The notes under the pieces were generated by a model. That model was not told where the DNA came from, made no database searches, and was given only the letters and a program-made list of their open reading frames with translations. 64,000 nucleotides of DNA from Escherichia coli (GTDB taxonomy: Bacteria; Pseudomonadota; Gammaproteobacteria; Enterobacterales; Enterobacteriaceae): assembly GCF_048403405.1 (NCBI RefSeq), contig NZ_CP183129.1. One strand, written 5' to 3'. This document shows positions 48,027 to 48,302 of the stretch, one piece after another. Made by a program: the position numbers and the translations under genes. How positions within the stretch are numbered: the first letter of the stretch is position 1; the number at the start of each line of letters is the position of its first letter.

Positions 48027-48061
48027 CCCCGTACTGATTATGAAGAATAATCAGTACGGGG
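48027..48061 (+). terminator. Strong hairpin downstream of gss
   Basis: Perfect 15-bp stem ccccgtactgattat/ataatcagtacgggg with a 5-nt loop; only a weak T tract follows. Confidence 0.55.
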
Positions 48062-48302
48062 ATTAATCAAAATATTCAATATTTATATATTCCAATATTT
48101 ATTCATTTCATATGTGAATGTATTAACCAGTGGAATACCTGTGTTTTGATTATTTCTAAAGGTTTTGAATGAATGCTTATTATCTGATACACAAGAAATA
48201 ACACTCTTTTTATCGTTAAAAAATGATATTTCACTTTGCCCACGCCGTTAAAGTCACTGATAATGCGTCCGTTCGTAAATTCAAAATGGCGTAATCTAAT
48301 AT

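Follow-up and report, generated by a model that had tools for sequence, protein, structure and literature searches.

The perfect stem-loop located at positions 48027–48061, immediately downstream of gss, has been shown to form the 3′ end of the monocistronic gss mRNA, as demonstrated by published transcript mapping and by the conservation of the RNA structure. The best joint explanation of the region, which is held with good confidence, combines a 3′-terminal stem-loop of the gss transcript, transcript release of the Rho type followed by trimming, and a pitA-derived promoter of pitB lying behind AT-rich DNA. The stretch of 64,000 nucleotides that was analysed is referred to below as the window, and all positions are those of the window unless K-12 coordinates are given.

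Structure of the locus and of the stem-loop

The gss gene, encoding glutathionylspermidine synthetase/amidase, occupies positions 46152–48011 of the plus strand in the list of open reading frames (1860 nt in the RefSeq annotation). Its transcription start site (TSS) lies at position 46064 of the same strand; this is the SMRT-Cappable-seq TSS 3138610 of the reverse strand of NC_000913.3 mapped to the window, where the surrounding sequence context was checked. The pitB gene (48303–49802, plus strand; open reading frame list and RefSeq annotation) encodes a low-affinity phosphate:H+ symporter and is a paralogue of pitA, with 81% protein identity and 76% DNA identity between PitB and K-12 PitA. 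The identities of gss and pitB were confirmed in 5,415 of the 5,426 complete E. coli genomes. In the RefSeq sequence NC_000913.3, gss (3136663–3138522) and pitB (3134872–3136371) are both on the complement strand. Since the spacer of K-12 shows no indels relative to the window, the coordinates were converted as g = 3184674 − w, where w is the position in the window and g is the position in NC_000913.3.

Synteny with Citrobacter, Salmonella, Klebsiella and Enterobacter ends exactly at the gss stop codon (48011–48012), and a BLAST comparison with the flanks of Citrobacter, Salmonella and Klebsiella found no homology past this codon. In a survey of gss neighbours, which used the C-terminal part of Gss as a query and one genome per species, pitB was found directly 3′ of gss in Escherichia only, and the whole block pitB-yghT-yghS follows gss only in Escherichia among the species surveyed. 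The pitB gene is often damaged in E. coli: strain 57_142493 has it as a truncated pseudogene, and in EC190486 it is split by an IS1.

The stem is separated from the gss stop codon by 15 nt. On the plus strand, the element ccccgtactgattat-gaaga-ataatcagtacgggg comprises a 5′ arm (48027–48041), a 5-nt loop (48042–48046) and a 3′ arm (48047–48061), forming the perfect 15-bp stem that had been reported by the first-pass annotation. The 45-nt RNA stretch containing the hairpin has a predicted folding energy of −25.9 kcal/mol (z = −9.5 versus dinucleotide shuffles), and none of the 200 shuffled sequences was equally stable. It is the longest inverted repeat of the 64-kb window; by our own estimate, chance would produce a perfect stem of 15 bp with a loop of 3–10 nt about 5 × 10⁻⁴ times per 64 kb.

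A stable GC-rich stem-loop is thus present shortly 3′ of gss, with four G-C pairs at the base of the stem, as is usual for canonical intrinsic terminators, but the U-rich tract of 7–8 nt that should follow the stem directly was not found. The tail ATTAATCAAAATATT contains only three T residues in its first eight bases, and a simple terminator scan of the window did not call this site. The tail score nT is 1.21 versus 3.2–4.3 for the canonical terminators of the same window, and a discriminant of the d'Aubenton-Carafa type gave −26.5 for the gss hairpin, the scores of three canonical terminators of the window lying between +1 and +27. The earlier view that a hairpin devoid of a good U-tract is not a simple terminator agrees with these values. 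Like canonical terminators, the element is a GC-clamped hairpin near the stop codon, an RNA 3′ end lies at its base, and read-through is low; unlike them, it is followed by the tail AUUAAUCA with no run of U, and its 15-bp stem exceeds the typical length and is richer in A/U in the upper half than usual.

The REP/BIME elements that stabilise mRNA 3′ ends are likewise extragenic palindromes able to block 3′–5′ exonucleases. They occur, however, in many copies per genome with a common consensus, whereas the gss element has no REP consensus and is found in a median of one place per genome and a maximum of two, so that it behaves as a single-copy element. A search against Rfam returned a match to Listeria rli38, whose 35.8 bits fall short of the gathering score (49), and one to a microRNA family; both were judged to be due to chance.

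Transcript mapping and conservation of the stem

The 3′ end of the gss transcript is recorded in the published SMRT-Cappable-seq data. Supplementary Data 1 of Yan et al. 2018 (PMC6131387) lists one transcript running from TSS 3138610 to the termination site (TTS) 3136609, which is labelled 'novelTTS' and covers b2988 (gss) only. In M9 medium, 120 reads start from this TSS, of which 76 end at the TTS, 6 pass through and 3 end within 50 bp; the corresponding numbers for rich medium are 35, 26, 0 and 1 (PMC6131387). Consequently, 76 of the 85 reads that reach the site in M9 (~89%) and 26 of 27 in rich medium (~96%) end there. The median read-through past the TTS is 212 nt in M9 and 96 nt in rich medium (PMC6131387), which in both media halts short of the pitB open reading frame. 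The TTS 3136609 corresponds to position 48065, and the mapped RNA ends with ...ACGGGGAUU(A), i.e., 3–4 nt past the last paired base. The steady-state 3′ end on the plus strand is placed at 48064–48065, with an uncertainty of ±1 nt owing to the coordinate convention of the table and with the reservation that a method based on poly(A) tailing cannot place ends precisely among genomic A residues. Neither Adams 2021 nor TERMITe 2025 has an entry for gss or a coordinate matching this end in its supplementary tables.

In the SMRT-Cappable-seq dataset overall, 75% of sites show a read-through of at least 5%, and low read-through goes along with a well-defined polyU tract. The gss site combines low read-through with the lack of such a tract, a combination that intrinsic sites of this dataset do not typically show. 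The first-pass annotation had regarded efficient termination at the base of the stem together with constitutive pitB expression as the mark of a plain terminator. The first part holds, in that the 3′ end is formed efficiently at 48064–48065 (~89–96% of reads). Constitutive expression is contradicted, as PMC3649669, citing Harris 2001, describes pitB as regulated differently from the constitutive pitA.

All five Escherichia lineages compared, namely E. coli, E. whittamii, E. sp. E1V33, MOD1-EC7003 and E. albertii, have retained the stem. In a covariation tally comprising these lineages and divergent E. coli strains, 93% of the cells at stem pairs contained standard pairs, versus 26–47% in controls with slid partner columns. 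Two independent compensatory double changes were found: E. whittamii and E1V33 have G-C in place of A-U, and strain GmM077 has C-G in place of U-A. All three one-sided changes that keep pairing give G·U pairs on the plus strand. These G·U changes read as A·C mismatches on the minus strand, which in these variants folds about 5 kcal/mol worse. Stem positions are unpaired in two single strains, with A·C in MS 21-1 and C·A in GmM077. The independent changes are few in number, but they point one way, towards selection acting on an RNA helix in the gss transcript instead of on a symmetric DNA site. The loop varies in sequence and length across the lineages. The tails following the stem differ as well (E. 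coli, AUUAAUCA; E. whittamii, AAAAUCGU; E. albertii, AGCAUGUC) and none of them is U-rich; therefore, selection acts on the stem alone. A role in the stability or processing of the gss mRNA at its 3′ end, which had been one of the original suggestions, is the best-supported reading.

The same suggestions included a palindrome recognised by a protein. A DNA site for a dimeric protein, for instance an operator or a site of recombination, would be compatible with a perfect 15-bp repeat situated at a synteny break and with the insertion of IS1 within the repeat in one strain. Such a site would be expected to show symmetry at the level of DNA with both strands equally tolerant of change, and this was not observed: natural variants break the DNA symmetry while keeping the pairing of the plus-strand RNA, through G·U and compensatory changes confined to that strand. 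Moreover, the RNA 3′ ends map to the base of the repeat, the loop is variable, the repeat is present in one copy per genome, and the pitB promoter is some 200 bp away. The proposal is accordingly regarded as most improbable. The strain with the IS1 copy mentioned above is 360D-1, in which the insertion lies within the 3′ arm and pitB has been lost by deletion.

Outside Escherichia, the type of 3′-end element turns over between lineages. In Salmonella and Citrobacter, the gss stop codon is closely followed by stable but unrelated hairpins that lack U-tracts, and Enterobacter and Lelliottia possess canonical terminators after gss, as do many other genera. Several Citrobacter species carry a CCCCG...CGGGG hairpin in the same position as in E. 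coli, with partly U-rich tails (UUUUAAC, UUAUUUG). Homology of these hairpins to that of E. coli is only suggestive, because the flanks show no homology past the gss stop codon.

Candidate mechanisms of 3′-end formation

Dar & Sorek 2018 (PMC6061677) described Rho-dependent transcripts of E. coli with precise 3′ ends located just past stable stem-loops that lack U-tracts. In such transcripts, termination takes place at a point beyond the stem-loop, to which the RNA is then shortened by PNPase and RNase II. The same work reported mixed or transitional cases and remarked that the two types of terminator interconvert easily, with which the variety of terminators found after gss in Citrobacter and other genera is in agreement (PMC6061677). 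A stable stem-loop with no U-rich continuation is present in E. coli and the four other Escherichia lineages, and a precise steady-state RNA 3′ end lies directly downstream of the stem. By analogy, the gss hairpin fits the known class of U-less 3′-terminal stem-loops, of which it would be a member that had not been characterised individually. The likeness extends to the absence of an upstream A-tract and to the moderate expression of the gene (PMC6061677). The difference is that the published cases have an excess of C over G downstream, whereas the sequence downstream of gss is A/T-rich, and that Rho dependence and trimming are, for gss, deduced from the resemblance.

Following this analogy, RNA polymerase would most likely pass the hairpin and enter the untranslated AT-rich spacer, where the transcript would be released by Rho, possibly with the help of nucleoid proteins. 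The 3′–5′ exonucleases PNPase and RNase II would then trim the tail back to the hairpin, which would also shield the mRNA from further 3′–5′ degradation. Whatever the mode of release, the stem-loop fixes the steady-state 3′ end of the gss mRNA 3–4 nt past the stem and keeps gss transcription away from pitB. The A/U-rich tail may contribute some intrinsic termination. Within the overall explanation, release in the spacer followed by trimming is the route that we favour by analogy, as somewhat more likely than not. The spacer is poor in C, with 8–18 C per 78 nt, and the ratio of C to G only slightly exceeds one in places, so that no obvious rut site can be pointed out. The counts of C and G are 10 and 6 in 48062–48139 and 17–18 and 9–13 in 48182–48299, the overall content of C being low.

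The scarcity of C and the lack of an obvious rut site speak in favour of a competing explanation, according to which the hairpin is a non-canonical intrinsic, Rho-independent terminator. Here, the GC-clamped stem and a weak A/U hybrid (AUUAAUCA) would cause release a few nucleotides downstream, and the short tail would subsequently be nibbled back to +3/+4. The stem is certainly strong (−25 kcal/mol with the four basal G-C pairs), seven of the eight tail bases are A or U, which makes for a weak RNA:DNA hybrid, and the apparent termination at the site reaches 89–96%. Besides, similar hairpins of Citrobacter have partly U-rich tails, many genera use canonical terminators in this place, and mixed cases are known (Dar & Sorek, PMC6061677). 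What tells against this explanation is the composition of the tail, reflected in three U among the first eight bases, the low nT and the negative discriminant, as well as the fact that E. albertii and E. whittamii keep the stem in front of GC-containing or A-rich tails unfit to serve as U-tracts. The association of low read-through with a well-defined polyU tract in the SMRT-Cappable-seq set is a further argument against it. On balance, intrinsic termination of this kind is rather unlikely, though it has to be taken seriously. Its extreme form, a hairpin that terminates with an efficiency of about 90% on its own, with neither a U-tract nor Rho, is very unlikely, and if true it would contradict the accepted need for a U-rich hybrid.

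A long duplex with partly complementary flanks (27-nt arms, 81% complementary) could also be a target of processing by RNase III or RNase E, or it could terminate a small RNA derived from the 3′ UTR. The usual substrate of RNase III is about 20 bp or more, and the 15-bp stem is shorter than that; the complementarity of the flanks is not conserved, even in K-12. The 3′ UTR comprises just 54 nt and offers no U-tail for Hfq, and no Rfam family matched above the threshold. This possibility can hardly be given any weight.

The AT-rich spacer and the pitB promoter

The sequence between the hairpin and pitB (48062–48302, 241 nt) has a GC content of 27.4% versus a window mean of 50.9%, and only 0.25% of the 241-nt windows are as low in GC. 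It is one of five such islands; the four others, with GC ≤ 0.30 over 241 nt, are located at 6200–6593, 12273–12818, 13458–13796 and 61230–61617. The description of about 240 bp of AT-rich sequence before pitB in the first-pass annotation is therefore accurate. Its designation as an AT-rich leader is right only as regards composition, since the part predicted to be transcribed, by homology with pitA, amounts to about 32 nt.

The spacer consists of dissimilar parts. Positions 48226–48302 (77 bp, plus strand), together with the start of the coding sequence, are 81% identical over 178 nt to the region upstream of K-12 pitA, the counterpart of the 77 bp being NC_000913.3 3637566–3637641. The homology ends abruptly, and no match to the pitA upstream region was found upstream of 48226. 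The distal 164 bp (48062–48225), which have no counterpart at pitA, contain 22.6% GC, and this segment maintains 22–27% GC in all five Escherichia lineages in spite of sequence turnover. Positions 48062–48175 have diverged freely between species, whereas 48176–48302 are nearly invariant in the alignment. The invariant stretch includes a 50-bp block (48176–48225) that adjoins the boundary of pitA homology on its upstream side, has no match in the pitA upstream region and contains no recognised motif; it may be a binding site of a regulator.

Two short open reading frames of the spacer were considered and rejected. For the 23-codon frame at 48224–48295, three of four changes within E. coli are synonymous, but E. 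albertii has GCG instead of its ATG, and most of the interspecies changes are non-synonymous. The 10-codon frame at 48170–48202 has no conserved Shine-Dalgarno sequence.

Within the pitA-homologous part, the promoter scan revealed a −35 element TTGCCC (48236–48241) and a −10 element GATAAT (48259–48264) at a spacing of 17 nt. The hexamers and the spacing are identical to those of the K-12 pitA promoter (TTGCCC-17-GATAAT), and an RpoD SELEX study gives the same hexamers for the yhiN/pitA spacer, where H-NS was flagged too. The published pitA TSS, 3637611, lies 7 nt after the pitA GATAAT. Because the homologous TSS has been mapped at this distance, that of pitB should lie at about 48271, giving a predicted leader of about 32 nt. 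The homologous hexamers, together with a pitA TSS at the expected distance, characterise the site as a sigma-70/sigma-S promoter of the pitA type, for which the TSS is a prediction in the case of pitB. An RpoS-holoenzyme SELEX peak obtained in vitro has been reported within the pitB-gsp spacer, and our own coordinate conversion (offset of about +1976) places it on the pitB −10 element. The predicted pitB promoter is thus a copy of the one in front of its paralogue pitA, and the bulk of the AT-rich tract (48062–48225) would represent DNA upstream of it and not a leader. The copies differ in that the sequence upstream of 48226 is unrelated to that at pitA and the pitB 5′ UTR differs at about 10 positions.

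As for the regulation of pitB, RegulonDB still gives it as a PhoB target. A study combining PhoB ChIP-seq with RNA-seq found no PhoB binding or regulation at pitB (PMC10294691), and on this literature the promoter does not belong to the Pho regulon. The SMRT-Cappable-seq tables contain no b2987 transcript and no coordinate of the 31363xx or 31364xx series among the entries listed, which is weak evidence of low expression; the pitA transcript is seen in M9 and rich media, while that of pitB is absent among the entries listed.

The AT-rich, lineage-specific character of the spacer (22.6% GC in the distal segment; pitB-yghT-yghS after gss only in Escherichia) and the poorly expressed neighbouring gene are features shared with promoters silenced by H-NS/StpA and with transcriptionally silent protein occupancy domains (tsEPODs; Vora 2009; Bryant 2014, PMC4191405). 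A silencing of the spacer and the pitB promoter by nucleoid proteins is plausible from its composition, and the 164 bp of AT-rich DNA with the conserved 50-bp block would probably keep the promoter quiet in standard media. When up to one mismatch was allowed, the spacer contained no copy of the high-affinity H-NS motif TCGATAAATT, no match to the IHF consensus was detected in 48000–48320, and the literature search found no H-NS occupancy data for the gss-pitB spacer.

An experimentally verified tsEPOD has been assigned to the 'pitB locus' (Bryant 2014, PMC4191405). It was considered as support for silencing of the spacer and set aside, as its coordinates convert to ~49313–51110, on the far side of pitB. 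This domain, verified within 1–3 kb of the spacer, covers yghT and the AT-rich sequence between yghT and yghS (GC 0.305 at 50500–50699), together with the 3′ third of pitB and the start of yghS. Another inverted repeat (49809–49843) is found in this area, right after the pitB stop codon and between the convergent pitB and yghT; it also has a U-poor tail, with a discriminant of −27.

Alternatively, the distal AT-rich segment could be neutral filler left by the rearrangement that placed pitB beside gss, or a simple UP-element, with the low expression of pitB resulting from a specific repressor acting on 48176–48225 or from differences in the 5′ UTR. The free divergence of 48062–48175 next to the near-invariant 48176–48302 is consistent with this, as are the missing H-NS motif, the lack of published H-NS data found for the spacer and the dissimilarity of the 5′ UTRs (CGTTCGTAAATTC in pitB vs CGTTCATGTCCTC in pitA). 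It is less easily reconciled with the persistence of 22–27% GC in all five lineages, with the documented silent domain in the neighbourhood, or with the binding of RNA polymerase to the spacer in vitro combined with the absence of an in vivo transcript among the entries listed. Taken jointly, these alternatives are possible, but they are not the expected outcome; silencing through the AT-rich upstream DNA is preferred.

The gss 3′ end was already present in a public table, and both the hairpin and the pitB promoter are ordinary features of known kinds, so the significance of the findings beyond annotation is small. They assign a mechanism class to a 3′ end hitherto labelled only as 'novelTTS', they replace the idea of a 240-nt pitB leader by a predicted leader of about 32 nt behind a pitA-derived promoter, and they show gss and pitB to be insulated from each other. 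The pair of pitA and pitB represents a small natural experiment, in which the same core promoter is combined with different upstream DNA and opposite expression behaviour, and it would be useful for studying the silencing of a duplicated gene by AT-rich upstream DNA or by the conserved 50-bp block.
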